Assembly (NCBI GenBank): GCA_045863855.1
Contig: BTVV01000012.1
Coordinates: 1 to 64,000 of the forward strand
DNA: 64,000 nt
Direction of reading: 5' to 3'
DNA from: Planctomycetota bacterium
Lineage (GTDB): Bacteria; Planctomycetota; SZUA-567; H5-PLA8
Part shown: positions 1-13,209 of the stretch, piece after piece
Numbering within the stretch: position 1 is the stretch's first letter
Layout of the letters: each line of letters opens with the position of its first letter
The notes under the pieces: generated by a model
The model's input: only the letters and a program-made list of their open reading frames with translations
Databases searched by the model: none
What the model was told of the DNA's origin: nothing
Position numbers and translations under genes: made by a program

Positions 1-879
1 CAACTGCTTGACCTTGTGAATATGCTTTGCTCGCCAGTTCCTCTTTTCGGCCCCGAGACTGCCGCTTTTCAGTGCCTTTGCAAATTGTAGGGCATACTTC
101 CTAATTTCGCTCCTGCGGTGGTTCTCGTTCCTAAAGCGTCGCGGGTGCTTCTTGTCGAAGGGCCTGGATGGAACATCCTCGTGGTCGTGGTAGAGGTAAT
201 TAAGTAAAGCATCCACCTCCATATTGATCGGAAGAGTTCTCCAAAGACGCTGAATGGACTCATAGTGCTGGACCAACTCATGGTATTGCTCTAGAAACTT
301 GTCGTAATCGCCAAAATTATCCGCCCGCACGACATAGTCCGGTGCGTCAGGGGGCAATTTAGTTAGTAACGGCAATGGTGAACCATTTTCTTCATCAACA
401 TTGCTTCTCGCTTGTTTCTTTTCGTCCAGGTCTTCTTCGACCACGGATCTTGCATGCCCCCACCACTCCTTAAAAATCGCATGCGCCATCTTTGCCTTGG
501 CACCTTGAAGAATAACGCCGACTTCGTGCCTCCTTGAGAATGCGGTTGCGGTTAGGTTCGCGGAGGTGACTAGGGCAAAGTTGTCGTCCACGATATATAG
601 TTTGGCGTGAAGGCCGCGGAGCGTTTTCACCACGCCATTTCTAAAAAAATGTTGCAGCGTATTGGTTCTGAAGTTTCCTTCTTCCTTGTCGAAAAGGAGG
701 CGCGGGTCTCTCACTCGCGTTTCCCATCCAGTGCCTAGAATGCGCCGCACACCGCTAGACCAACCACCAATATAGGGAGAGGCAATCCAAAGCCGTTGCT
801 TTGCCTTATCTGCTGCTTTTCGCAGAGCGTAAGTCAGTTCCTTGCCGTAAACGAGCTGCGTATCACTGGCTCTACTCAT
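1..879 (-). CDS. Phospholipase D (HKD) family nuclease-like protein, 3' end beyond the window (>293 aa)
   Basis: Not in the ORF track. Manual translation from ATG 879 is open to base 1: MSRASDTQLVYGKELTYALRKAADKAKQRLWIASPYIGG...VKTLRGLHAKLYIVDDNFALVTSANLTATAFSRRHEVGVIL, containing IASPY, HxKxxxxD, SANLT and the downstream Glu. Confidence 0.85.
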   Translation of the reverse strand, partial: MSRASDTQLVYGKELTYALRKAADKAKQRLWIASPYIGGWSSGVRRILGTGWETRVRDPRLLFDKEEGNFRTNTLQHFFRNGVVKTLRGLHAKLYIVDDNFALVTSANLTATAFSRRHEVGVILQGAKAKMAHAIFKEWWGHARSVVEEDLDEKKQARSNVDEENGSPLPLLTKLPPDAPDYVVRADNFGDYDKFLEQYHELVQHYESIQRLWRTLPINMEVDALLNYLYHDHEDVPSRPFDKKHPRRFRNENHRRSEIRKYALQFAKALKSGSLGAEKRNWRAKHIHKVKQL

Positions 880-1036
880 GATGCGTTTCCTTTTCTTGAA
901 ATCCTTTGGCGCTCGGCAAGAAGGAAGTCTTCGGCCACGTGTCCGTTGGGACGTTTGCCCACATCATGTCGAGCGACCGCATGGTGGTCCTGTTTGCACA
1001 TCTAAAGATCAGCATCTTCTTCTGCGAATCAACGGC

Positions 1037-1585
1037 TCATGCGTCATTTGTCCGGCGGATCTGGACGTCAACAAACTCTCGAAGCCGGGATTCCGAAATT
1101 CCTAGTTCTTCTAAACATTTAATCGCTTGGTCCATCAACTGGTCCCTACGCGCCTTGGCCGTGGCGACTTTTTCCGTCAAGCCTGCCTGTTCGATCTCTT
1201 CTGCCGTGTACTTCTCCGCAAATTGAAGAAGGTACGGCAAGGTCGCCCCGAAGGGCAGAATCGCCTGCCTGGACTGCCCCTCGCTCCAAACGCATTTGAT
1301 GGACATCCCGTTCGCGCTGATGAGGCCCTGGTCTATGCGTATGGAAACCGTCTCGCCTTTGACCTTCGTACCGATAAGCCCAATGAGGAACTTGGCAACC
1401 ACTCGTGCCTGTCCGTCCCAGGCCCCTTCCGCCGGCATACTCACGGTTAGCCCTTTCATCGTTACCTTTAGCTGCTGACCGTCAAAGGTGAGTACGGCGT
1501 CGTCCTTTTCGATTAGCTTCCGGACTCGTTTCACGGACCGCAACAGATCCTCGAAATCGGTTCGCGAAAGTTTCAGTTCCGGCAT
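1037..1585 (-). CDS. Hypothetical protein; N-terminal ~100 aa resemble one sliding-clamp (DnaN) domain
   Basis: 182-aa ORF co-oriented with the cassette. The clamp resemblance is by eye only. Confidence 0.7.
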   Translation of the reverse strand: MPELKLSRTDFEDLLRSVKRVRKLIEKDDAVLTFDGQQLKVTMKGLTVSMPAEGAWDGQARVVAKFLIGLIGTKVKGETVSIRIDQGLISANGMSIKCVWSEGQSRQAILPFGATLPYLLQFAEKYTAEEIEQAGLTEKVATAKARRDQLMDQAIKCLEELGISESRLREFVDVQIRRTNDA

Positions 1586-1647
1586 CGGTGGCGTTTCCCA
1601 ATCCCGCTTTCTTACTGCGCGGCATCCGAATTCCAGACCTCTCGAGG

Positions 1648-2262
1648 CTATCGAGCGGAAAGCATGTTTCTTAGGCGATTCAGTTCAGATTCGCTGATGT
1701 AGCTTGGTGTCCTGGTAATCGGAAACGGCCTGCTGAAAATGTCTTCGGGTACATCCGGTGGATTGTGAAGGTCCATCAATTCAGTTCGACAAGCCAGGAA
1801 GGTGCCACATTGGTCGGCCCGGAGTTGGTACTCCTGATCCCATTGAACATGGGTGCGGCATGGTGTGTTGGACACGGCCATACTGGAGGGCTTGGGCTTG
1901 TTTCCACTGACCATGCAGTTTGATGGCAGGCTCCCAACCTCTTTCATGTACCAAGCAGCCGCGTCCGCATGTGAAAGGAACTTCTTGATCACCTCCAGAA
2001 TGGCTACCAGCTTACGGACACCGGCACGCTTTACTGTGATGTACGCAATTATGTCGCCTACCCGTGTACGGCCTACCAGCTTGTCGAGCCGACAAAGGCC
2101 GGAAATTGAAGGGTATTTGCACTCAAAGTCCGGTTCACGGCGAATGGAAGCATCTATGTAAGGGGGCAATCCAAGCTCGGCGACGATGTTCTTGCCCTTA
2201 CGCGTTTCACACAGCGGATGGTAGGAATTCAGGAAAAACCGCTTTCCCTCATCTCTCTTCAT
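1648..2262 (-). CDS. Hypothetical protein, possibly Nmad2/PUA-like
   Basis: 204 aa; the ATG overlaps the helicase stop (ATGA 2259-2262). Segment PSISGLCRLDKLVGRTRVGDIIAYITV resembles the Nmad2 'TLATCKPxIRxxAxxGDW' pattern. Confidence 0.7.
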   Translation of the reverse strand: MKRDEGKRFFLNSYHPLCETRKGKNIVAELGLPPYIDASIRREPDFECKYPSISGLCRLDKLVGRTRVGDIIAYITVKRAGVRKLVAILEVIKKFLSHADAAAWYMKEVGSLPSNCMVSGNKPKPSSMAVSNTPCRTHVQWDQEYQLRADQCGTFLACRTELMDLHNPPDVPEDIFSRPFPITRTPSYISESELNRLRNMLSAR

Positions 2263-5200
2263 CTCGGAGCCTCCGCCCGAGCGAGCAGTTCCGCGAAGTC
2301 GTAGTTCACGCTCGTCACCCCGAAATCCGGCTCGCGTCGGAACGGCTGCCGCACGTAATGGACGCGGTGCTTCTCGCCGTCCAGGAATTCCACGATGGCC
2401 AGAATGAAATGCTCCGGCTGATTCAACGAATAAAGAATCTCGTTCCTGGTGACGGTGACGGTCGCCGCACCGGTCACGCGCCCCTTCACTTCAATGAAGC
2501 GCAGTTCCCCGGTGCCCGGCACGCGGCTTTCGATGTCGTACCCGAGCTTCTCGACTTCGCGGTCGGTGGGCTCGAAACCCAGGGTGCGCTCGACCTCCAT
2601 CACGATAGCGCGCGCACGCGCAGCAGACGCCTGCGTATCCACCGGATCCATGGAGACCGGCGCCGGGCGCCCCATGATCTTGGCCAGCATGCCCATCGGC
2701 ACCACGACCAGTCCGCCCAGCACCACCGGGGGCAGCGCGGAAACCTGGCCTTCGCGATCCAGTTGTTCCAGGCGCTTTTGCAGCCGGCTTTGCAGATCGT
2801 CGGCGCGGCGGCGGGCTTCCTGGCTGTTGAGTTTGGCGTTGGTCTTGCCGGCTTGTTCCTGGGCCTTCAGGTCCTCGGCACGGTGGTCCCAGTAGTTGAT
2901 TTCTTTGGTCAGGCGCTCGTATACCGCCGCGCGGGTCTTGGCAATCCACTCTTGCCGGCGGCCCTTCACTTCCTGGAAGTGCTCGGGCACCACCTGGCCG
3001 ATGGCATAGCCTTGCGCCTTCTTCTCCAGATCGCGATTGATCCACGCGCACTCGGGCCGGTCGAGGATGGCTTGCACGCCGGGTTCGCCGTCGTGCAGGG
3101 GCCGATAATCCAGGTAGGGCGCGTACTGGAGGTGGCGCACGTTGCCGGAGTCATCCAGCTCGACGTAGAGCATCCGCTTTGAAATGGTCCGCCGTTCGCC
3201 GCTTTTCGTGATGCTGGCGTCCTGGATGCTGTGCTCCAGGTAGAAGAGCATGCGGGGCTTCTCGCTTGGGTCGCGTTCGTCCACCAACACCGTGCCGCGC
3301 CGAAGCAAATCGCGATGGCGTTCCATGGTCAGGTCAAGAGTGGCGTCCAGGAGCGGGTGACCCGGACAGACGAAGGCCGCCAGGGCCTGTCCCTGCGGGG
3401 CGATAAAGTCCTTCTCGAAGGCGATGCGCTCATACCGCGACAAGACCGGTTCGCCGATGCCGATCAGGCGGTCTCGATTACGGACAGGTGCGGGTACGTG
3501 AGTGACTTCGTACCGGCGCGGCTCGCGCTGCTTGGCCGTGCCGCCCAACTGTTTGAACGCTTCCAAGAAGAAGGACTCGATATAGTGCGGCTGAAGCCGC
3601 CGGGCTTCGGCGCGCTCCATTTCTTCCCGCACCCTCCGCACGCGGCTGGCATCCATGGCGTCCGTGGCAAGAGCGTGCACGTCCAGTAAGTCCTGAATCT
3701 GATTGCGGTCGAAGGCGCCGGCAATGACTTGATTGAGCCGTGCTCGCACCTCGGGCTTTTCGCCGTAGCGCACCGCTTCAATCAGCAAATCGCGCAGCGG
3801 CTTACCCTGGAACTGGAGCTTGCCCAGCACGTCAAAGACCTGCCCGCCCAGCGCGCGGCGCGCTTCTTCTAATTTCTCCAGCAACGTGCGGTACACATCG
3901 CCTTCGCGCGTTTCGTCGGCGATCAGGTTCCACAAGTGACAGACCTCGGTCTGGCCGATGCGGTGGATGCGCCCAAAGCGCTGTTCGAGCCGGTTCGGGT
4001 TCCAAGGCAAATCGTAATTAACCATCAGGTGCGCACGCTGGAGATTGATGCCTTCTCCGGCGGCGTCGGTGGCGAGCAGTACCTTCACTTGCGGGTCGTG
4101 GCGGAAGGCTTCTTGCGCTTTTTTTCGGTCTTCGCGGCCCAGTCCCCCGTGAATGGTGACCACGGCATCCGCCTGACCGAGGAGGGTGGCGATCTTGTCC
4201 TTAAGGTAAGTCATCGTGTCGCGGTGCTCGGTGAAGATCACGAGCTTCTGACCGGGAGACGCTTTGGGCTTGGGAATCGGGTTCTTGCCGTAAGCGGGAG
4301 CTTCTTCGGCCGCTCGATTGGCGATGGCAGCAGGCGTGAAGATCTCCGACAAAAGGGTGGTCAATTCAGCCCACTTCTTGTCTTCGCCGCTGTTGCGAAC
4401 CTCATTGGCCAGGTTCTCCAGCTTCTTGAGCGTCCTGATCTCGGCTTTCAGTTCGTCGATGGTCCGTGCCGCCGTGGCTTGGTCGAGAATCTGTTCCTCG
4501 GCCTGTTCCTGCTCTTCGCCCGGCGCGTCCTCGAAGTCTTCCAGGTCCTCGGCATCCATGGCCGGTACGTCGGACGCGATGGCGTTGGCGACGGCGCCGC
4601 GTTGCATGAGCTGAAGCTCGCGCATGCGGCTTTCCAAGCGATCCTTACGGCGAACCAGGGACTTGTAGATGGCTTCCGGCGAGGACGCCAGCCGTCGTTG
4701 CAGGATGGTCAGTGCGAAGCCCACGGTCCCAGCGCGCTTATCGTTCTGGAGCGCTTCGGCGCGGTTAAACTCTTCCCGTACATAGTCGGTTACGTCCTTG
4801 TAAAGCCTCGCTTCGCTGTCGGTAAGCTTGTAGGGCACTGTTTTGGCGATGCGCTCCGGGAAGAGCGGCCGACCATCGAACTTGAGCAGCTTCTCCTTAA
4901 CCATTCGGCGCATCAGGTCCGAGACATCCGCGGCGTGCACGCCATCCCGGAACTTCCCCTCGAAGCGGTCGCCATCCAGCAGCGCCATGAAGAGCTGAAA
5001 GTCTTCTTCCTTCCCATTGTGTGGCGTGGCGGTCATCAGCAGAAAATGGCGCGTCAGGGTAGAGAGGAGCTGCCCGAGGCGGTAGCGCTTCGTGTACTTC
5101 ATCTCGCCGCCAAAGAATGTGGCGGAGAGCTTGTGGGCTTCGTCGCAAACCACCAGGTCCCAGCGGCAATCGGGCGCCTTGAGCTTGTCCTGCACGTCCT

Positions 5201-5837
5201 CGTTGCGGGAGAGCTTATCGAGCCGGGCGATGACCAAATCGTTTTCGAGGAACCAATTCCCGGTGCGCGCGGCCTCCAATTTGTCGTTGGTCAGGATCTC
5301 GAACGGCAGGTGAAAACGGCGGTGCAGTTCGTCCTGCCACTGCTCGGCCAGGCTGCCGGGGCAGACGATCAGGCAGCGCTTGAGGTCGCCACGGACGATC
5401 AGCTCCTTGATGAATAGCCCGGCCATGATCGTCTTGCCCGCGCCTGGGTCGTCGGCGAGCAGGAAGCGTAGCGGTTGGCGCGGCAGCATGGCCTCGTAGA
5501 CAGCGGTGATCTGGTGGGGCAGGGGTTCGACCTGTGAGGTGTGCACGGCCAACACGGGGTCGAACAAATGCGCGAGCCGAATACGGTTGGCCTCGGAGAC
5601 CAACCGGAAAAGCGCGCCGTCGCCGTCGAAGCTCCAGGGGCGCCCAACTTCGACGACTTCAAGCGCCGGCTCGTCGTGGCGGTAGAGCAGGCGCTGTTCC
5701 ACGCGCCCTGCGGGATCTTTGTAGGTCAGCTCGACAGCTTCTGAGCCGTGCCACTGGATGCTGACCACTGCGACTTGGCAGTTCGGCAAGATGCCCTTTA
5801 CGGCGGCATTGGGCGTGAGGTCTTCGAGTTTGGCCAT
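2259..5837 (-). CDS. SNF2-family helicase with C-terminal DUF3883/NOV_C PD-(D/E)xK nuclease domain
   Basis: 1192 aa with LLADDPGAGKT, CDEAH, TATPH, TDAAGEGINLQ, EQRFGRIHRIG and C-terminal GYDIES...RFIEVKGR. Confidence 0.92.
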   Translation of the reverse strand: MAKLEDLTPNAAVKGILPNCQVAVVSIQWHGSEAVELTYKDPAGRVEQRLLYRHDEPALEVVEVGRPWSFDGDGALFRLVSEANRIRLAHLFDPVLAVHTSQVEPLPHQITAVYEAMLPRQPLRFLLADDPGAGKTIMAGLFIKELIVRGDLKRCLIVCPGSLAEQWQDELHRRFHLPFEILTNDKLEAARTGNWFLENDLVIARLDKLSRNEDVQDKLKAPDCRWDLVVCDEAHKLSATFFGGEMKYTKRYRLGQLLSTLTRHFLLMTATPHNGKEEDFQLFMALLDGDRFEGKFRDGVHAADVSDLMRRMVKEKLLKFDGRPLFPERIAKTVPYKLTDSEARLYKDVTDYVREEFNRAEALQNDKRAGTVGFALTILQRRLASSPEAIYKSLVRRKDRLESRMRELQLMQRGAVANAIASDVPAMDAEDLEDFEDAPGEEQEQAEEQILDQATAARTIDELKAEIRTLKKLENLANEVRNSGEDKKWAELTTLLSEIFTPAAIANRAAEEAPAYGKNPIPKPKASPGQKLVIFTEHRDTMTYLKDKIATLLGQADAVVTIHGGLGREDRKKAQEAFRHDPQVKVLLATDAAGEGINLQRAHLMVNYDLPWNPNRLEQRFGRIHRIGQTEVCHLWNLIADETREGDVYRTLLEKLEEARRALGGQVFDVLGKLQFQGKPLRDLLIEAVRYGEKPEVRARLNQVIAGAFDRNQIQDLLDVHALATDAMDASRVRRVREEMERAEARRLQPHYIESFFLEAFKQLGGTAKQREPRRYEVTHVPAPVRNRDRLIGIGEPVLSRYERIAFEKDFIAPQGQALAAFVCPGHPLLDATLDLTMERHRDLLRRGTVLVDERDPSEKPRMLFYLEHSIQDASITKSGERRTISKRMLYVELDDSGNVRHLQYAPYLDYRPLHDGEPGVQAILDRPECAWINRDLEKKAQGYAIGQVVPEHFQEVKGRRQEWIAKTRAAVYERLTKEINYWDHRAEDLKAQEQAGKTNAKLNSQEARRRADDLQSRLQKRLEQLDREGQVSALPPVVLGGLVVVPMGMLAKIMGRPAPVSMDPVDTQASAARARAIVMEVERTLGFEPTDREVEKLGYDIESRVPGTGELRFIEVKGRVTGAATVTVTRNEILYSLNQPEHFILAIVEFLDGEKHRVHYVRQPFRREPDFGVTSVNYDFAELLARAEAPR

Positions 5838-6184
5838 GTGCGTCCTGTATGTTCAATAAAAGCCGGCCAAGATCCTGGGCGGGTTAATCTCGGCCGACCT
5901 GGACGGCGGCCATGGCGCCGTTCGAATCTGGACCAAAATGAATCCCACGCAAGGATGGGGTGCTTATATCAGACTAGGCACATGGTGCAAGCGGTAGGGG
6001 CCTATCTTGTTTCAGACGACTGGGAAATGTCTCAAATATCGAGCAGCACAAATGGCAGCAGGACCATTCTCCAGTTCATTGAATAGGCCCAAGGAGCGCT
6101 AAGTTGAGCCCTCCTGTATCCGATTGGCAGGGAGAGTTGGTTAATCTAATCCCAAATAAGGATAAGTCTGGCCCCCAGAGGCCT

Positions 6185-6208
6185 CGCGCGCGCGCACGCG
6201 CGCGTATA
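6185..6208. repeat. 24-bp alternating purine/pyrimidine tract; shares a 15-mer with 9824-9838
   Basis: CGCGCGCGCGCACGCGCGCGTATA, followed by an AT-rich patch (GAATTATTATTTTAG). Confidence 0.8.
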
Positions 6209-6359
6209 AGGTGGGAATTATTATTTTAGGGTTGTGGCTGGGAATAAATGCGGGAAAGATAGGTTCGCCGGGGGCACGGGATGATCACCCGTGGCGGTTG
6301 CTCCGACCGCCTGCCCCCGGCCTTTCTTCCTCGGAGTTGCGCGATGCGGAGCACGCGCC

Positions 6360-7391
6360 ATGGCAGGCTATTCTGATTTCTTGAAGTTCTGCGACCACAT
6401 CGAACATTTCGCCGCAGGCTCAGGCCCGCCCGACCCTGCTCCCGAGTTATTCGAAGCAGCCTTTCGTTTCCTGAGCGAGCGTGGGCGTGAGGACGAAGGT
6501 AAGGCTCTGCGCGAGCTTTATGAAGCCGATCTACGTCCAAAATGGAAAGCCGTCCATGAACGGGTCTTCCCGTTGAATATCTCGGAGACGGACAGGCTTT
6601 CGGTGGAAGCGGTTTGGGCGGTGGAGAGGCGTGAATTGCTTTTGGCCAAGGCGCGGCTTTCAGAACACGTCAAAGGGCTCCGTGCTCGACTTGAATCGGG
6701 GGACGAATCCGCCCAGGACTGGATGCGGCTGCGCGATTTGTTTTGCAATCGTGGAGCGGACATTCTGAGCGCGCACCACCTGGAGAAGAAGCAGGCACTT
6801 CAACGCCAAGCAGGAGCTACCGGAATGGGGTCGAGTGGCGCCCTGACGGCAGGTGAGGTGGTGCTCGAAAGCGAAAGGCAGGCATTGTTGCGCGAGTGGG
6901 AGCGGCTTGTGGATATGGCGGCGATGGGGAAGCGGGAGATGGCAGTGGGGGTTTTGGATGCCAGATATGAATTAGACGAGGTTCGAAGCCGCCTGAAATC
7001 CGTTTTACTTGAGTTCCCGGACCAACTACCGAATCCAGTACCAGACGACTTAGCGGTACGCGACGAAGAGGCCGCGCACGCGGCAGGCTGTGCGACGGAT
7101 GCCCACTCTTCGCGGGCGGAGCATGCAATCTTGACCGCGCGGGGATTATCTGAGGGAAGTCCTTCCAATGGGTACTTCTCTTCGACCGATCTTGCAATGC
7201 GTCATGGACTCGACTCCGAGGCGTTGCGAAAGCGTCTGGAGCGCTGGCGGAAGGAAAACGGGGAAGGATGGATCGAGACGCCCAACAGGAAATCCCGGCA
7301 ACCTGCTGCCACTTACCAGGAGAGCGCTGTTTGGGCTGTACTCAAGGCGCTGAAAGCGCGGAAGGAAACGTCCAGCGAACGTCCAGCATGA
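6360..7391 (+). CDS. Hypothetical protein with probable C-terminal HTH (element regulator)
   Basis: The track ORF starts at 6291 (GTG); ATG 6360 is the more likely start. C-terminal STDLAMRHGLDSEALRKRLERWR is HTH-like. Confidence 0.65.
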   Translation: MAGYSDFLKFCDHIEHFAAGSGPPDPAPELFEAAFRFLSERGREDEGKALRELYEADLRPKWKAVHERVFPLNISETDRLSVEAVWAVERRELLLAKARLSEHVKGLRARLESGDESAQDWMRLRDLFCNRGADILSAHHLEKKQALQRQAGATGMGSSGALTAGEVVLESERQALLREWERLVDMAAMGKREMAVGVLDARYELDEVRSRLKSVLLEFPDQLPNPVPDDLAVRDEEAAHAAGCATDAHSSRAEHAILTARGLSEGSPSNGYFSSTDLAMRHGLDSEALRKRLERWRKENGEGWIETPNRKSRQPAATYQESAVWAVLKALKARKETSSERPA

Positions 7392-7452
7392 CCAATTTTT
7401 CGAGATTGTTTTCCCTATAGAGCGAAGCTGGACGCACTTCCAGCGAATGTCC
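7369..7452. promoter_or_regulatory. Cluster of (CG)TCCAGC repeats, putative operators upstream of the replication operon
   Basis: CGTCCAGC at 7369 and 7380, inverted GCTGGACG at 7427, and TCCAGCGAATGTCC at 7439 matching TCCAGCGAACGTCC at 7371. Confidence 0.5.
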
Positions 7453-7652
7453 GATGACAACATAAGTCATGAACTCCTGATTTACTTCGGGCATGAACGC
7501 ATACGAAATCCCTCTACGTAAGCTGCGCAGGATATTGCACGATACGGAAGTTGCCGACCCCCGCTCGCAGGGGGCTGCGATTCTCCGTCGAGTGCTGGCT
7601 GAGCGCGAAGCCCTGGAATGCCGTGGGTGGCGCCGCGCGGAAAGGCGCGCAA

Positions 7653-8573
7653 GTGAGTGCTGTTGCACATGTACTCACCGCACTGGAGGCCGCCGGTTGC
7701 TCGCCGCGCCCCGCAGGCACGGGTTGGGCCGCAAGGTGCCCGGCGCACGACGACCACAATCCATCATTTCAGCTCGACGAGGGAGACGACGGCCGGGCGT
7801 TGGTCCGATGCCATGCCGGTTGCGATACGCGAGATGTGCTGGCCAGCCTGGGGCTGACCGTCGCCGACCTGTTCAACGGAGATCAATCGAAAACTTCGCG
7901 CCCTGACGTGCAATGCCGCGACCTGAACGGGCGCGAACCTGCACCGCCGCCGAACCCGGACGTTACACGGTTGCAGCGGTTTTCAGAAGAACTCTCGCGA
8001 CGGCAATCTGCGCATCCCGATTCTCAAACGGCGGCACTGTCTCGGCGCGGTATCTCGCGAGAAATAGCCTGCGCCTACGGAATCGCGTTCTTCGACAACA
8101 TTACCTTCGACAGGTGGCGACCAATTGAAAATGTTTGGTGCATCCCGATTCCAACGCCTACCGGTGAGTATCGCGGGGTCAAGCTACACAAGGAAGGCGC
8201 GGCGAAGGGCACCCCAAAAACGCTCTGGGCACCTTTCGGCTCCGAGCCTACTGACCGTCCTCGCCATGGGTGGACAACGCTTTGGCCACCGGCGGAATGG
8301 TTCGCGTCTACCGAGCCAATTACTATTTGTGAAGGTGAATTAAAGGCCGCGGCGGTCTTGAGCGCCGGGCGCAACGCAGTATCGCCGACTACGGGTGCGG
8401 CAACGCGCTGGACACCTAAGCTTGTGCAGCATCTGTATGGGCGACGCGTGGTCATTCTTTACGACGCCGACGACGCCGGAATCAAGTTCCGTAACAATCT
8501 CACTGCGGTGCTTTGTAAAAAAGTGGCGAGCCTTCGCGCAGTCACCTTTCGTCAAAGCCAGGTGGCCAAATGA
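7653..8573 (+). CDS. Primase: zinc-binding domain plus TOPRIM
   Basis: CPAHDDHNPS...CHAGC zinc finger, ICEGELKA and ILYDADDAG TOPRIM motifs. GTG 7653 follows GAAAGG (track start 7551). Confidence 0.85.
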   Translation: MSAVAHVLTALEAAGCSPRPAGTGWAARCPAHDDHNPSFQLDEGDDGRALVRCHAGCDTRDVLASLGLTVADLFNGDQSKTSRPDVQCRDLNGREPAPPPNPDVTRLQRFSEELSRRQSAHPDSQTAALSRRGISREIACAYGIAFFDNITFDRWRPIENVWCIPIPTPTGEYRGVKLHKEGAAKGTPKTLWAPFGSEPTDRPRHGWTTLWPPAEWFASTEPITICEGELKAAAVLSAGRNAVSPTTGAATRWTPKLVQHLYGRRVVILYDADDAGIKFRNNLTAVLCKKVASLRAVTFRQSQVAK

Positions 8574-9820
8574 AACGAGACGCGAACGACGTTGCGCGCG
8601 AATGCGGACCGGGCGGACTGCGGTCCGAGTTGGAGCAAATGGAGCACGAAGCGCCCGAGCTTGCGCTAGCGGATGTAGGGCCGGACCTAGACACTCCGCA
8701 CAACGCCGCGCCGCGCGAGCGCTGTGCGCCATTTGTCATTCAGAGCGCTCGCGAGTTGCTTCGCAATCATCCACACCTGCGCGAACCGGTCGTCCATGGA
8801 TTGCTGAGGTGCGGAGAAACCATGAACGTCATTGCGCCTCCAAAAACCGGAAAATCCTGGCTCACCTTAGGCCTCGCGCTCTCCGTCGCCGCCGGACGCG
8901 ACTGGCTTGGGTTTCGCGTAGAACCGGGGCGGGTGCTGATTCTCGATAATGAACTCCACCGGGAAACCCTGGCGTCTCGCCTGCCGCGCGTTGCTGAGAC
9001 GCTGTGCATCCCGCTGGACTCCGAGGCCATCGCCGGAGTGGATGTAGTCTCCCTGCGCGGCGCGCTGCGCGACCTGTTCGGCTTGGCCGACGACCTGCGC
9101 GCTATCGAGTCGGGCACTTACCGCATTGTCATCCTCGATGCGTTCTACCGGTTCCTTCCGAAAGGCACTGACGAAAACGACAACGGCACCATGGCGAACC
9201 TGTACAACACCCTAGACGCTCTGGCAGCGCGCTTGGGCTGCGCGTTCGTGTGCATCCACCATACTTCGAAGGGCGTGCAAACCGGCCGCGCTGTTACTGA
9301 CGTGGGCGCGGGCGCTGGAGCGCAGAGCCGCGCCACTGACTGTCATTTGGTTTTGCGACCACATGAGGAACCCGGTGCGGTTGTGCTGGAGGCGGCGATT
9401 CGTTCGTGGGCACCCATTGAGCCGTTATGTCTGCGCTGGCGGTTCCCGACTTGGGAACTCGCGGCCGATTTGAATCCCGCCGATCTGGCGCATACCAAAC
9501 CGCGCAAAAAGTCGAAGCCGGCCGAGTCTGATGCCGAAAATTCGACCGAGCCAGGATGGAGCGGCGAGCGGTTCGCGGCTGCATTCCTCGCCGCCGAGCC
9601 GCGCTCGCGCAGCACCATTCTCCTCGCCGCTGAGGAGGCCGACTTGAGCAATAACCGCGCGCGCAGGTACTTACAGAACGCAGTGGATACCGGACGCGCC
9701 CACGAGTGGCACGGAGTGGGAGGGAACAACCGCGAACGGCGATTCGCCACCGTACCCCAGCCGAAATTGGACCTGCAACCACCCCAAAAACGTGGGGTTG
9801 GGAGGCCACGGAGGAAATAA
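8570..9820 (+). CDS. AAA_25 / RepA-like replicative helicase
   Basis: APPKTGKS Walker A, LILDNE, IVILD Walker B, IHHTSK; ATGA overlap with the primase stop. Confidence 0.88.
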   Translation: MKRDANDVARECGPGGLRSELEQMEHEAPELALADVGPDLDTPHNAAPRERCAPFVIQSARELLRNHPHLREPVVHGLLRCGETMNVIAPPKTGKSWLTLGLALSVAAGRDWLGFRVEPGRVLILDNELHRETLASRLPRVAETLCIPLDSEAIAGVDVVSLRGALRDLFGLADDLRAIESGTYRIVILDAFYRFLPKGTDENDNGTMANLYNTLDALAARLGCAFVCIHHTSKGVQTGRAVTDVGAGAGAQSRATDCHLVLRPHEEPGAVVLEAAIRSWAPIEPLCLRWRFPTWELAADLNPADLAHTKPRKKSKPAESDAENSTEPGWSGERFAAAFLAAEPRSRSTILLAAEEADLSNNRARRYLQNAVDTGRAHEWHGVGGNNRERRFATVPQPKLDLQPPQKRGVGRPRRK

Positions 9821-9821
9821 T

Positions 9822-9895
9822 TGCGCGCGCGCGCACGCACCCCCCATACCCCCCGGCTGGCGCTGAAGCGCCGCCGGGCGAGGGGAATGCGCGCA
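9822..9895. other. Putative replication origin of the element
   Basis: Directly after the helicase stop: (GC)n tract, CCCCCCATACCCCCC, hairpin CCCGGC-T-GGCGC-TGAA-GCGCC-GCCGGG (9852-9878), then the palindrome TGCGCGCA. Confidence 0.4.
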
Positions 9896-9976
9896 CAGAC
9901 GCGGAGGAAGACCTGGCCGCGTCCGATGCAACTAAACTTAATCGAGAGCAACCGTCACGAAACGGAGGTATCGGCC

Positions 9977-10291
9977 ATGCAGCAACCTGAAATCCCCGCG
10001 CCGCAAGCACCCGAGGCCGCGTCCGCGCAGGACGCACCGGGCGTCCTGGCGGCGTTGGCCCGATTGCCGGATAAGGCGCTGCTGACCGAAGACGCGCTTG
10101 CACGGGCGCTGGATGTATCCAAGCGAACTGTGCGGCGCATGGTGGCGCGGTTCGAGTTGCCACCCGCCGTCCGCTTGGGCGGGAAGTCCACTTGGCAGGC
10201 CGGAGCGGTGCTGCGATGGTTCGAGGCCCGCGCCGAACGTGCGGCCCGGCAAGCCCAGCGTGCCGCCGAACAAAGAGCGCGGACAGCTTGA
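9977..10291 (+). CDS. AlpA/excisionase-like HTH protein
   Basis: GGAGG RBS then ATG 9977; LLTEDALARALDVSKRTVRRMVARFELPPAVRLGGKSTW. Confidence 0.85.
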   Translation: MQQPEIPAPQAPEAASAQDAPGVLAALARLPDKALLTEDALARALDVSKRTVRRMVARFELPPAVRLGGKSTWQAGAVLRWFEARAERAARQAQRAAEQRARTA

Positions 10292-10322
10292 CTTTTTCGC
10301 ATACAGGAAGTTAAGTGAGCGC

Positions 10323-10493
10323 ATGGGAAAGAAACGCATGGGACGCCCGCCGAAGCCCAAGGCCGAACGCCTTAGCGAAATCATCAACCTGCGCATGACG
10401 CCCGGTGAGCGACGGCGCTTCGAGGAACTCGCCCGGCTGGAAGGCTGCACGATATCGGAGTTGATCTTGAGGCCCTGGCGCAAGGAGTCCTGA
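10323..10493 (+). CDS. Small ribbon-helix-helix protein (56 aa)
   Basis: MGKKRMGRPPKP...IINLRMTPGERRRFEELARLEGCTISELI; ends 3 bp before the integrase. TTGACT-N17-TTAAGT lies just upstream (possible leaderless promoter). Confidence 0.7.
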   Translation: MGKKRMGRPPKPKAERLSEIINLRMTPGERRRFEELARLEGCTISELILRPWRKES

Positions 10494-10496
10494 CCG

Positions 10497-11741
10497 ATGA
10501 GCTACACGTTTCAGACGAACGACGGCGACGGGAAGCCGCATCCGCGCTGGCGTTACCAGTTCACCGACTACAAGGGCCGACGCCGGACGGCTTCGGGCAC
10601 TTCAAGCCGTGCCGATACCGAACGCATGGCCGAACGTCGGCAGGCGTTCGAGAACGAAATCCGCGACGGCATCCGACCGGTCCCGAAGTCGTGGGACACC
10701 GCTCGCGAGTACGCCGACACGGTACGGGAATACGTGGCTTGGGGCGGCGAGAAGGGCGGACGCAACGGGCATGGCTGGCCGATGAACTTGGTCAAAGAGA
10801 AAGGCCGCGTGCTGACCTACTGGGGCAACCGGTTGGGACTCAAAACGCTGGCCGATCTGGATGATTGCTTGCCGCGTGTGGACGACGCCTTGGCCGAGTT
10901 AGCGAAGGCCGGTCGGAAAGGCAAGACCGTCGCTCACTACGGCGCGCACTTGGCCGCGTTCTGCGATTGGTGCGTTGACCGTGGTTTCATTGCTGCCGAT
11001 CCCTTGGCGAGTTTGAAGCTGCCGGACGATTCACCGGAGATTCCACACCGAGCCTTGACCCGCGAAGAAGTAACGCGGCTGCTGGAAGCCGCCCCGCCTG
11101 ACCGCGCGTTGGTCTATCGAGTGGCCTTGGCGACGGGCTTTCGCCAGAATGAGCTAAGGGCGCTCTGCGTAGCCAACCTTGACCGCTTCGGACCGTCGCT
11201 GGCCTTGCCTGCCCGGTTTGCGAAGAACCGGAAGGATGCCCGGCAGTTCATCCCTGCGGACTTGGCTGCCGAACTGGCCAAACGCTGCAAGGACTTGGCT
11301 CCTGACGCGCCGCTCTTGCCCATGCCGAAGAAGAACACGACCGGAGAGAACTTTGCGCGCGATCTTGCCAATGCGCGTATCGTGCGCCCAACTCCCGACG
11401 GCAAGGCGACGTTTCACAGCCTGCGCGTTACGGCGATCAATGCCGTTGTGGATGCCGGAGCCGATCTTAAAACGATTATGACCTTTGCGCGTCACAGCGC
11501 CGCACAGATGAGCATGGAGACTTACGCCAAGCCCAAGACTGACCGCTTGCGCGAAGCCTGCCAAGCCGCCGCCGCGCTCGCAAACACCCCAACATCGAAC
11601 GAAGAGAACACCAAGGGAACACAACGGAAAGCTGCCGGTGCTGAAAGTGATTGCGTGGCCGTGGGTTACGAGGAACCCGCGCTAGGTTCGAGTCCTGGCC
11701 CGGTAACCAATTCGGCTCGGCACGTTTTCACTCCTGCTTAA
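10497..11741 (+). CDS. Tyrosine recombinase / integrase
   Basis: Catalytic set TGFR, K (AKNRK), FHSLR, ARH and TY. The ORF reads through the att site. Confidence 0.93.
   Translation: MSYTFQTNDGDGKPHPRWRYQFTDYKGRRRTASGTSSRADTERMAERRQAFENEIRDGIRPVPKSWDTAREYADTVREYVAWGGEKGGRNGHGWPMNLVKEKGRVLTYWGNRLGLKTLADLDDCLPRVDDALAELAKAGRKGKTVAHYGAHLAAFCDWCVDRGFIAADPLASLKLPDDSPEIPHRALTREEVTRLLEAAPPDRALVYRVALATGFRQNELRALCVANLDRFGPSLALPARFAKNRKDARQFIPADLAAELAKRCKDLAPDAPLLPMPKKNTTGENFARDLANARIVRPTPDGKATFHSLRVTAINAVVDAGADLKTIMTFARHSAAQMSMETYAKPKTDRLREACQAAAALANTPTSNEENTKGTQRKAAGAESDCVAVGYEEPALGSSPGPVTNSARHVFTPA
11682..11709 (+). other. Attachment site: tRNA 3'-end fragment (possibly tRNA-Gln)
   Basis: CTAGG-TTCGAGT-CCTGG T-arm, CCCGGTA acceptor strand, discriminator A, CCA. 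A at position 72 implies U1-A72, typical of tRNA-Gln; the identity is inferred. Confidence 0.8.
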
Positions 11742-13209
11742 GCTGCCCATCTTTCTTCGCGATCCGTTTCGCCAGGGCCGCGCCGGAATGCAGCGCGCCT
11801 TCCATGTAGCCCACGAACGCATAGCACGTGTGTTCGCCGGCGAAATGAAGGCGCTCCAGGCCCTCGTACAGCGTCTTGCCCATCGACGTGATCTGCCCTG
11901 GCGCGGGAAACGAGTAGCTCGCCCCCGCCCACGGATCGCCCGGCCAATCCATAAAGCGGCTCCCGACGAACTGCTCGCGCAGGCCCGGATAGCGTGCTTC
12001 GAGCGCTTTGAGGTACTGCTCGTCGCGCTCCGCCAGCGTCCACTGGCGGCAGGTTTCCGCGGCCGGACCGCCGGAGAACGTCGTCAGGCACGCGCCGGCT
12101 TCGCCTTCCTTCTGGTTATCGGTGGCGTCCCAGGTCATCGTCGCGGGGCCGTCGGAGAGGCTGTACTGCGAGAGCTTCGCCGCTTCCCAGAAGCGGCTTT
12201 TGACCGAAGCGAGGTACTTCACGTTGCAGCCCATCTGCGGGCGCAGGTCGCCGGGCAGCGGCGGATCGAAGGCGATCTTGGTCCAGACGCTGGGCGAGAC
12301 GGCCAGCACCACGCGGTCGAATTCCAGGGCCGTGCCGTCGGCGCCGGTCACGACGGCGCGTCGGGCTTCGATCTTCACCGCGCGAACTGGCGCGTTCAGG
12401 CGCAGGCGCGGGGCGCCCAAGGCTTCGGCGAGTTTCGCCGCGAGCTGCTGGTTGCCGCCCGCGCAGCGGTAGACTTCCGATTCGGTCCAGTACTTCTCCA
12501 GCCCGCCGCCGCTCACTTGCGCCAAGTTGCCCAGATAGCTTTGCCATGCGGGGAGCACCCCGTTGTCCGACGCGAGCTGCGCGCTCAACGCGGCTTTGCA
12601 GGTGGGCGAGGCCTGCTGTGCGGCGATCCAGTCGGCGGTGGTGCGGCGGTCGAGCTTCTTCGCGCCGGGCGCTTTCCACGGTTGATAGCCGTCCACGCGC
12701 GCGGCGTCGGCGTTCATGCGCGGCAGTACCGCATCCAGCTCTTCCCACAGGGCTTCCGCTTCCCGCGCACTCAGACGTTTGCCGTCCAGCACGATCGGCG
12801 CCTCGGCTTCGGCGTCGTCGGTCACGTCGAGAAATTTAAGACCGAAGCGTTCGGAGTAGGCGACCCAGGCGGGATGATTGGAGCCGATCAGTTCGGCGCC
12901 GCCTTCGACATTGCGCTTAGGCACGAAATCGGAAAACGAGAGCACACGTCCGCCCAAGCGGTTGCGCGCTTCCAGCACCGTCACGCGGTAACCGGCGGCG
13001 GCCAGTTCGTGCGCCGCGGCCAGACCCGCAAAGCCGGCTCCGATCACCGCCACGCGCGGCGTATTGCGCTCGTCGGCCAGGCAGCGTCCGGCGCTCAGGA
13101 GCAGCGCGGCGCCCGAGGCGAGGCTGAGCTTGAGCATCTCGCGCCGCGAAAGCGCTTGGTCGTTCGGTGCAAACCGGCGGTACAGGACGGCGTAAAGGGA
13201 GCGGGACAC
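11728..13209 (-). CDS. Flavin monoamine oxidase family protein with Tat-like signal
   Basis: SRREMLK twin-arginine motif, VAVIGAGFAGL, EARNRLGGR, FAGEHT...GYMEGALHSG; GTG 13209 with GGAGG RBS. Confidence 0.9.
   Translation of the reverse strand: MSRSLYAVLYRRFAPNDQALSRREMLKLSLASGAALLLSAGRCLADERNTPRVAVIGAGFAGLAAAHELAAAGYRVTVLEARNRLGGRVLSFSDFVPKRNVEGGAELIGSNHPAWVAYSERFGLKFLDVTDDAEAEAPIVLDGKRLSAREAEALWEELDAVLPRMNADAARVDGYQPWKAPGAKKLDRRTTADWIAAQQASPTCKAALSAQLASDNGVLPAWQSYLGNLAQVSGGGLEKYWTESEVYRCAGGNQQLAAKLAEALGAPRLRLNAPVRAVKIEARRAVVTGADGTALEFDRVVLAVSPSVWTKIAFDPPLPGDLRPQMGCNVKYLASVKSRFWEAAKLSQYSLSDGPATMTWDATDNQKEGEAGACLTTFSGGPAAETCRQWTLAERDEQYLKALEARYPGLREQFVGSRFMDWPGDPWAGASYSFPAPGQITSMGKTLYEGLERLHFAGEHTCYAFVGYMEGALHSGAALAKRIAKKDGQLKQE

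Follow-up and report, generated by a model that had tools for sequence, protein, structure and literature searches.

The left end of a 64,000-nucleotide stretch of DNA from a Planctomycetota bacterium (contig BTVV01000012.1 of assembly GCA_045863855.1; G000:C12:1-64000, here called the window) carries four neighbouring genes, and the question arises whether they constitute an undescribed anti-phage system or parts of one that is already known. A preliminary description of the window proposed, for a SNF2 helicase-nuclease, an Nmad2-like reader, a clamp-like protein and a PLD nuclease, either a new four-gene system or a variable slot within a DUF1156/DUF499 locus that continues to the left. Its basic observations were reproduced, and its guesses at the domains of the small genes were good ones. 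The four open reading frames (ORFs), designated hmaA, ORF2, ORF3 and PLD, are co-oriented on the minus strand (Table 1); the first two are coupled by an ATGA overlap at 2259-2262, the helicase and the PLD protein carry nuclease motifs, and the G+C content (GC) of ORF2, ORF3 and PLD (0.524, 0.548 and 0.504, respectively) is lower than that of the helicase (0.625), with 0.638 for the genome. Base 1 of the window is also the end of the contig, so that it is the assembly, and not the choice of window, which truncates the PLD gene. The four-gene-system reading fails, because the sequence of the helicase assigns it to Hma (Type-1 BREX-related), a system that already has a name and has been validated in part, and because the small genes were not seen together in any other locus surveyed. 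What the locus carries is an Hma system of the known kind, on an element integrated at a tRNA gene, together with three passengers missing from defence catalogues.

The helicase matches the PADLOC family HmaA from residue 1 to 1191 (profile positions 1-1172 of 1176; E=0, 1712 bits), and the next PADLOC family, DrmD, reaches 393 bits, so that HmaA fits four times better. The motifs GAGKT (residue 132), DEAH (232), GYD (1099), EVK (1116) and RNE (1131) are present. Scores above the Pfam cut-offs were obtained for SNF2-rel_dom, Helicase_C and, at residues 1075-1162, NOV_C, which we take to be a synonym of DUF3883, as well as for PLDc_2 in the PLD protein. DUF1156 and DUF499 have one match each in the genome, both on contig C59. 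The DUF1156 protein is HmaB (995 aa; PADLOC 1547 bits; FAGGG at 175 and DPPY at 600), and the DUF499 protein is HmaC (PADLOC 1164 bits), with an N-terminal HEPN_Swt1 domain, an Rx4H motif at 96 and a Walker A motif at 249. The preliminary description did not recognise the gene combination as a named system; its alternative suggestion, a variable slot in a DUF1156/DUF499 locus, is borne out by hmaB and hmaC, which follow on C59. The parts that define Hma are thus all found: a full-length HmaA with a C-terminal NOV_C nuclease, a DUF1156 N6-adenine methylase and a HEPN-fused DUF499 ATPase. Their order is that of Hma, and they share one strand. Hma was originally named by Payne et al. 2021 (PMC8565338) and was renamed in PMC12839542 as Type-1 (DUF499-centred) BREX-related systems. 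The published search rule is three genes on one strand with at most three embedded between each (bioRxiv 10.1101/2024.01.29.577857); given the contig junction proposed below, three genes lie between hmaA and hmaB and two between hmaB and hmaC. Validation concerns HmaA: in the work of Liu et al. 2024 (PMC11232893), a Halomonas homolog gave protection against T4, and supercoiled DNA was nicked by its NOV_C domain.

The junction of the two contigs is indicated by the PLD gene. C59 ends 331 nt upstream of hmaB, within an open frame of low GC (0.47) that encodes 108 aa and terminates just short of hmaB, a few bases ahead of its start. This tail matches the C-terminus of 84 of the 103 homologs of the window PLD, and a profile of the last 105 residues of PLD homologs finds it as the sole match in the genome. 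Along the best homologs, the part in the window reaches residue 284-287 and the C59 tail resumes at 286-290, so that about one codon would be missing between the contigs. The integrative element noted earlier is real, with primase (Toprim), AAA_25, HTH_17 and tyrosine integrase genes and a repeat of the tRNA-Gln end. An intact tRNA-Gln(ttg) lies at C59 26025-26099, oriented like the attachment-site (att) repeat of the window; the best other genome matches to this 27-bp repeat are of 15 bp, and att repeat and gene strands agree across C12 and C59. As the orientation of the repeat fits, C59 followed by C12 would form one integrated element of ~21.1 kb. The inferred order on one strand is hmaA, ORF2, ORF3, PLD, hmaB, an MNT-HEPN pair (PDC-M05A/B) and hmaC. 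The pair, a nucleotidyltransferase and a small partner matching PDC-M05A/B, lies between hmaB and hmaC at L004:15616-16624 (G000:C59). A second hmaA, 88% identical, is found at L003:7063-11773 (G000:C164), ATGA-coupled to a TmtA-like (GHKL-type) gene that is cut by the contig end; close homologs (57-62%) of the latter lie in three other Hma slots (L201, L208 and L248). Against the two hmaA genes of this assembly, hmaB and hmaC were each detected just once.

The space between hmaA and hmaB is a known site of insertion. Embedded genes were reported in 931 of 1,485 Hma systems (62.7%), forming 376 distinct cassettes, and 7 of 9 tested Hma-embedded candidates were protective (bioRxiv 10.1101/2024.01.29.577857); a second study gives about 66.5% for embedded genes (PMC11232893). 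In the present analysis, DUF1156 matches occurred in 67 of 391 genomes of the window's phylum and in 69 of 391 of a second phylum, and 80 higher-scoring matches with upstream DNA were sampled. An hmaA end (>40% identity) precedes DUF1156 on the same strand in 34 of these 80 loci, and the gap between hmaA and hmaB exceeds 400 nt in 20 of the 34 pairs. When 29 of the 44 called insert ORFs were scanned with PADLOC, AbiLi/AbiLii, HEC-08, HEC-09, PDC-S21 and TmtA-like proteins were among the matches. The closest relatives of the window, L204 and L205 (same genus) and L206 (same family), encode HmaA proteins 88-90% identical to that of the window and share only hmaA with window positions 1-12000. 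Their inserts differ from those of the window, consisting of a Hypoth_Ymh protein, a GmrSD_N protein or unannotated ORFs, with one 20.9-bit match to the window PLD family in L206. Among the 34 slots, ORF3 occurs in one, ORF2 and the window PLD family in none, and no slot holds two of the three.

The co-occurrence of the passengers bears on the rival view of one new co-evolving system, in which ORF2 would read modified DNA, ORF3 would tether to replicating DNA and PLD would cut. The genes are adjacent and co-oriented, the small ones all have low GC (0.50-0.55), and their predicted roles are complementary. The same arrangement is also covered by contigs of three other sequencing runs (X2, X4 and X3) from two other studies; as their DNA is near-identical, these represent the same lineage. 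However, neither ORF3, PLD nor hmaA was found in any of the best 80 of 159 ORF2 stretches, 70 of which have at least 1.5 kb on the informative downstream side. Likewise, ORF2 and ORF3 are absent from the best 80 of 266 PLD stretches, 46 of which have at least 1.5 kb upstream, and none of the 10 strong ORF3 loci holds ORF2 or the window PLD family; the sole weak PLD match near ORF3 loci (28.7 bits, ~6 kb away) is a different PLDc_2 protein. In addition, 157 nt separate ORF3 from PLD. A conserved three- or four-gene cassette is therefore rejected on the ORF2, PLD and ORF3 loci surveyed and on the 34 slots, and a single new system is very improbable. What recurs is single passengers: hmaA lies directly upstream of PLD, with hmaB next, in 2 of the 80 PLD loci (hmaA-PLD-hmaB in L085 and L087), and ORF3 occupies the hmaA-hmaB slot in L181 and L252. 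One of the 80 ORF2 loci lies after a distant DUF1156/DUF499 pair.

Very probably, then, the helicase is the HmaA of an Hma system whose hmaB and hmaC lie on a likely adjoining contig, and the small genes are likely independent backup passengers of the hmaA-hmaB slot. Host DNA would receive its mark from HmaB, whose FAGGG and DPPY motifs are of the N6-adenine type. HmaC would assemble on DNA or scan it, its N-terminal HEPN RNase being kept for the last resort, and HmaA would be the translocase that nicks invading DNA. Published experiments support the HmaA step alone, in the Halomonas homolog (PMC11232893); the marking and scanning steps follow the model of PMC12839542. PLD is likely an auxiliary DNase that serves as backup. 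ORF2, which the ATGA coupling would co-express with hmaA, likely binds a modified base and would thus cover phages that evade the Hma core through modified DNA. ORF3 is likely a dimer, and its two clamp domains would serve as decoy or sensor towards phage proteins with an affinity for the surfaces of the clamp fold.

Several points weigh against this reading. The adjacency of C12 and C59 is a strong inference rather than an observation, because neither an end overlap (none of at least 8 nt between the contigs) nor read letters confirm it; contigs of runs X3 and X4 reach 385 and 66 nt past base 1, respectively, as extents only. The samples of 80 ORF2 and 80 PLD loci are not exhaustive, and the non-co-occurrence of PLD is weakened because many of its loci are short and some are redundant (L101-L104 are identical). 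No passenger has a PADLOC family of its own. ORF2 has no conserved partner, with a defence, toxin-antitoxin or mobile gene as immediate neighbour in 18 of 74 loci by our own classing, and 4 of the 10 strong ORF3 matches have no identifiable defence neighbour.

ORF2 has 87 homologs in a word-indexed search. Its AlphaFold2 (AF2) model, built from an 81-row alignment, has a predicted local distance difference test score (pLDDT) of 96.2. The best structural matches are EVE, YTH, ASCH, THYN1 and McrB-N domains, led by 1wmm (Z 10.0, root-mean-square deviation (rmsd) 3.1, 123 aligned), with 9 chains at Z of at least 8; the 14 best (Z of at least 7.5) are, going by their entry titles, all of the PUA-like type. 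In the Atlas, ORF2 reaches template modelling (TM) scores of 0.51-0.83 to Nmad2, ASCH and EVE clusters, the value of 0.83 being to a cluster in which 35% of the members are Nmad2. No Pfam family is found in any of the 81 homologs, including Nmad2 (PF18753; 0 of 81 at E 0.01), so that the label "Nmad2-like" stands for the fold and not for the Pfam family; the same holds for "clamp-like", as DNA_pol3_beta is detected in just 1 of 121 ORF3 homologs. ORF2 shares the predicted fold with known PUA-like readers (EVE, YTH, ASCH, McrB-N and Nmad2) at 5-12% identity, but has no Pfam match across the 81 members and no fused nuclease. The conserved aromatics Y74, W104, Y105 and W141 fit a base-binding pocket in the model. 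RREP and H98 are invariant in the 81 homologs, and many polar residues are invariant (RREPD, H98, N115 and C116), which could as well point to an enzyme; the invariant RREPD, R58 and H98 could instead reflect catalysis. ORF2 is thus predicted to be a modified-base binder or a small enzyme, distantly Nmad2-like. It has no PADLOC match, and neither ORF2 nor ORF3 matches any of 50,697 phage records. PMC13092281 lists the NMAD domain among predicted, unvalidated defence domains. No paper on Nmad2 in Hma was found in the literature searched, a scope that excludes the supplements of PMC12839542 and of the bioRxiv embedding paper. The supplement of PMC11232893 contains 0 occurrences of Nmad2, 17 of PLDc_2 and 28 of DNA_pol3_beta, and three of its rows that were inspected concern helicase fusions and full DnaN.

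The PLD protein carries a single HxKxxxxD motif at residue 91. The family is about 396-400 aa long; its one HKD motif is followed by an extended C-terminal part without a Pfam match. In Nuc/BfiI-type enzymes, a single motif on each chain points to a nuclease that works as a homodimer, and by analogy the window PLD is likely a homodimeric auxiliary DNase. Auxiliary nucleases, HKD enzymes among them, have been described in BREX and related loci (PMC12839542). Homologs are found in Hma (2 loci), beside type I HsdR (3) and beside an N6_N4 methylase (3), with one representative annotated for each HsdR or methylase group. PADLOC matches cover only the generic HKD segment of the DrmC, ZacB and MkoB models, and no HEC or PDC model is among the 25 of 32 matches listed. 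PLD homologs occur in viral contigs at 2 loci, in neither of which tblastn detects Hma, ORF2 or ORF3. In L087 (313-2580), the PLD homolog appears to contain a frameshift, and the true hmaB has a short piece resembling an hmaB start ahead of it.

ORF3 offers the freshest testable lead at the locus, as a predicted single sliding-clamp domain. A word-indexed search returned ORF3 alone, and an exhaustive search gave 492 relatives or clusters (50% clustering, E <=0.001). In the AF2 model (pLDDT 93.9), residues 1-102 form one sliding-clamp domain, followed by helices. The model matches DnaN 6d46 with Z 11.9 (rmsd 2.7, 98 aligned), in agreement with Foldseek (E 6.4e-4); 39 chains have Z of at least 8, and the 40 top rows are all of the clamp fold. 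ORF3 therefore resembles DnaN, PCNA, 9-1-1 and viral processivity factors in this domain but has one domain per chain instead of two or three. Two-copy modelling gave a score of 0.47 against 0.01 for the best control, with runs agreeing in at least 96% of contacts and pLDDT of at least 81. These values pass the mark set for the tool, which 20 of 30 solved homodimers attain but just 1 of 23 monomers; with the alignment made for this analysis, the mark holds only roughly. The modelled interface comprises residues 115-179, with conserved hydrophobics such as L120, A154, L158 and L161. The models support, rather than demonstrate, a dimer through the C-terminal helices; as pairing does not involve the clamp domain, no ring is predicted at two copies. 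PADLOC gave no match better than E 0.005 for ORF3 and no HEC or PDC family for the 121 homologs, one weak Cas11a match aside. Homologs P0206, P0197, P0217 and P0290 have extra domains; P0206 joins an N-terminal region with a phosphatase-like HCxxGxxR motif to the clamp-like domain.

The contexts of ORF3, 10 genome matches and 1 plasmid, bear on two further explanations. A profile search of 1,205 other genomes yielded 10 matches scoring over 60 bits, besides 7 weak matches of 19-26 bits, several of which lie in DnaN-sized frames (375-386 aa). The two best matches both lie between hmaA and hmaB, as the only insert in L181 and directly before hmaB in L252, although the score of one of them is raised because it is 54% identical to a profile member. 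These placements, together with the position of both Hma-linked PLD homologs directly after hmaA and the mere 27-29% identity of the three Hma-embedded ORF3 copies (window, L181 and L252), would suit a dedicated optional Hma subunit: ORF3, and perhaps PLD, would bind HmaA, HmaB or HmaC and alter targeting or processivity instead of acting alone. Such a subunit is unlikely, however, considering that the covered DNA holds no Hma gene in 8 of the 10 strong ORF3 matches and in 78 of the 80 PLD loci, and that the one sampled slot of 34 with ORF3 was already known from the profile search. In a quick tree of 54 rows (28 of 51 inner branches open), the Hma-linked copies form no supported clade, and this tree cannot decide between single and repeated entry into Hma. 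In L181 (3843-6863), hmaB is split over three frames.

Alternatively, the passengers may be neutral or non-defence cargo in a tolerant slot, a genomic sink, with ORF3 acting perhaps in DNA repair or mutagenesis. ORF3 and two homologs all hit the same single record among 72,556 plasmids, where the surroundings of the homolog include an error-prone polymerase cassette as well as an exonuclease and an Ada-domain gene. Several ORF3 matches are broken or partial (L183, L186 and L187), and the neighbours of ORF2 (133 scanned of 138 called, in 74 loci after two near-duplicate loci and L068 were dropped) are mostly housekeeping or unannotated genes. On the other side, 6 of the 10 strong ORF3 matches lie in or beside defence-type genes, namely Hma twice and, adjoining the other four, MmeI, Mrr, an ABC-ATPase with HNH, and HipA_2 with DUF3037. 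The HKD motif of PLD is intact, and most Hma-embedded candidates of the published screen (bioRxiv 10.1101/2024.01.29.577857) were protective, which makes neutral cargo doubtful. Tentatively, and with a probability that is low though not negligible, ORF3 represents an undescribed, widespread anti-phage accessory family in which a single clamp domain on a dimerising stalk serves as a clamp-fold decoy or sensor and has repeatedly been recruited to Hma and restriction loci; an Hma accessory subunit is about as probable, and the remainder falls to other defence roles or to none. No stand-alone single-clamp-domain defence protein was found in the literature searched, although the passenger families may be listed in the supplements of PMC12839542 and of the bioRxiv embedding paper; the word "clamp" does not occur in the main text of PMC12839542 and, in PMC13092281, occurs only within an author name.

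Compared with other Hma loci, the present one differs in its cargo, that is, three genes between hmaA and hmaB that have no PADLOC model of their own and the PDC-M05 pair between hmaB and hmaC. The passengers share slot, orientation and guilt-by-embedding logic with the HEC-01 to HEC-09 and PDC candidates, but the nine HECs are ABC-ATPase, GmrSD-like or RNase types. DISARM also combines a SNF2 helicase with a stand-alone PLD nuclease and a methylase; membership in DISARM class I is rejected by the NCBIfam scores of 366 for DrmD (cut-off 610) and 47.5 bits for DrmC (cut-off 133). In Type-2 BREX-related systems, an HKD nuclease fused to the helicase N-terminus replaces the C-terminal restriction endonuclease (PMC12839542). 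This assignment is also rejected, as the helicase of the locus has NOV_C and no PLD domain, and PLD is a separate gene.

As such, the locus is an ordinary example of a documented pattern, and its value lies in three passenger families that defence catalogues have missed. With ORF2, which would be a stand-alone PUA-like protein without a partner nuclease, it could be tested directly if readers of this type work together with Hma. If ORF3 proves defensive, the sliding-clamp fold would join the immune toolkit as a replication-fold module co-opted for bacterial immunity, and ORF3 would provide a small, easily cloned probe for the detection of phage replication or anti-replication proteins.

Table 1. 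Features of the window, with positions on the forward strand of the contig
Feature	Position	Strand	Size and basis
hmaA, SNF2 helicase with C-terminal NOV_C (PD-(D/E)xK) nuclease	2259..5837	-	1192 aa; PADLOC, Pfam, motifs
ORF2, predicted PUA-like (EVE/YTH/ASCH) fold, embedded passenger	1648..2262	-	204 aa; predicted structure
ORF3, predicted single sliding-clamp domain and helical C-terminal domain, embedded passenger	1037..1585	-	182 aa; predicted structure
PLD/HKD nuclease, N-terminal 293 aa, open at base 1	1..879	-	Pfam PLDc_2
Primase-like gene (Toprim) of integrative element	7551..8573	+	Pfam Toprim_2, 22.3 bits (cut-off 22.1)
AAA_25 helicase-like gene of element	8570..9820	+	Pfam AAA_25, E 4.2e-35
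Excisionase-like HTH_17 gene	9821..10291	+	Pfam HTH_17
Tyrosine integrase	10497..11741	+	Pfam Phage_integrase
Attachment-site repeat, copy of tRNA-Gln(ttg) 3' end	11684..11710	+	27/27 identical, E 2.5e-8

Minor features of the layout were also noted. The spacer between ORF3 and PLD contains a 47-codon open frame (872-1015, minus strand), which continues the ORF3 frame past its stop and overlaps the PLD start; it has no homolog among the proteins and loci compared and is not recognisable as an hmaB relic. An hmaB 5' stub in this spacer is unsupported, since the score of the protein profile was reached by 152 of 1000 shuffles, and an hmaB DNA profile found nothing in the actual spacer. Only weak matches came from a profile of hmaA 3' ends, the best (E 0.0095) inside ORF2. 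A scan for promoters and terminators was uninformative, since it found 1 promoter-like site where shuffles averaged 2.0, and 5 terminator-like sites where they averaged 7.3, and no RNA run is listed among the sequencing runs that match the locus DNA. Upstream of the primase gene and divergent from hmaA, the element carries an ORF of 343-366 aa (6291-7391, plus strand) with no match in Pfam, NCBIfam or PADLOC. Elsewhere in the genome, 26 tRNA genes lie on one strand within 4.5 kb (G000:C1:23667-28178). Short DNA similarities to the replication and HTH region of the element, of 77% at G000:C151 13300-13503 and 67% at C178 7082-7440, hint at related elements in the same genome.

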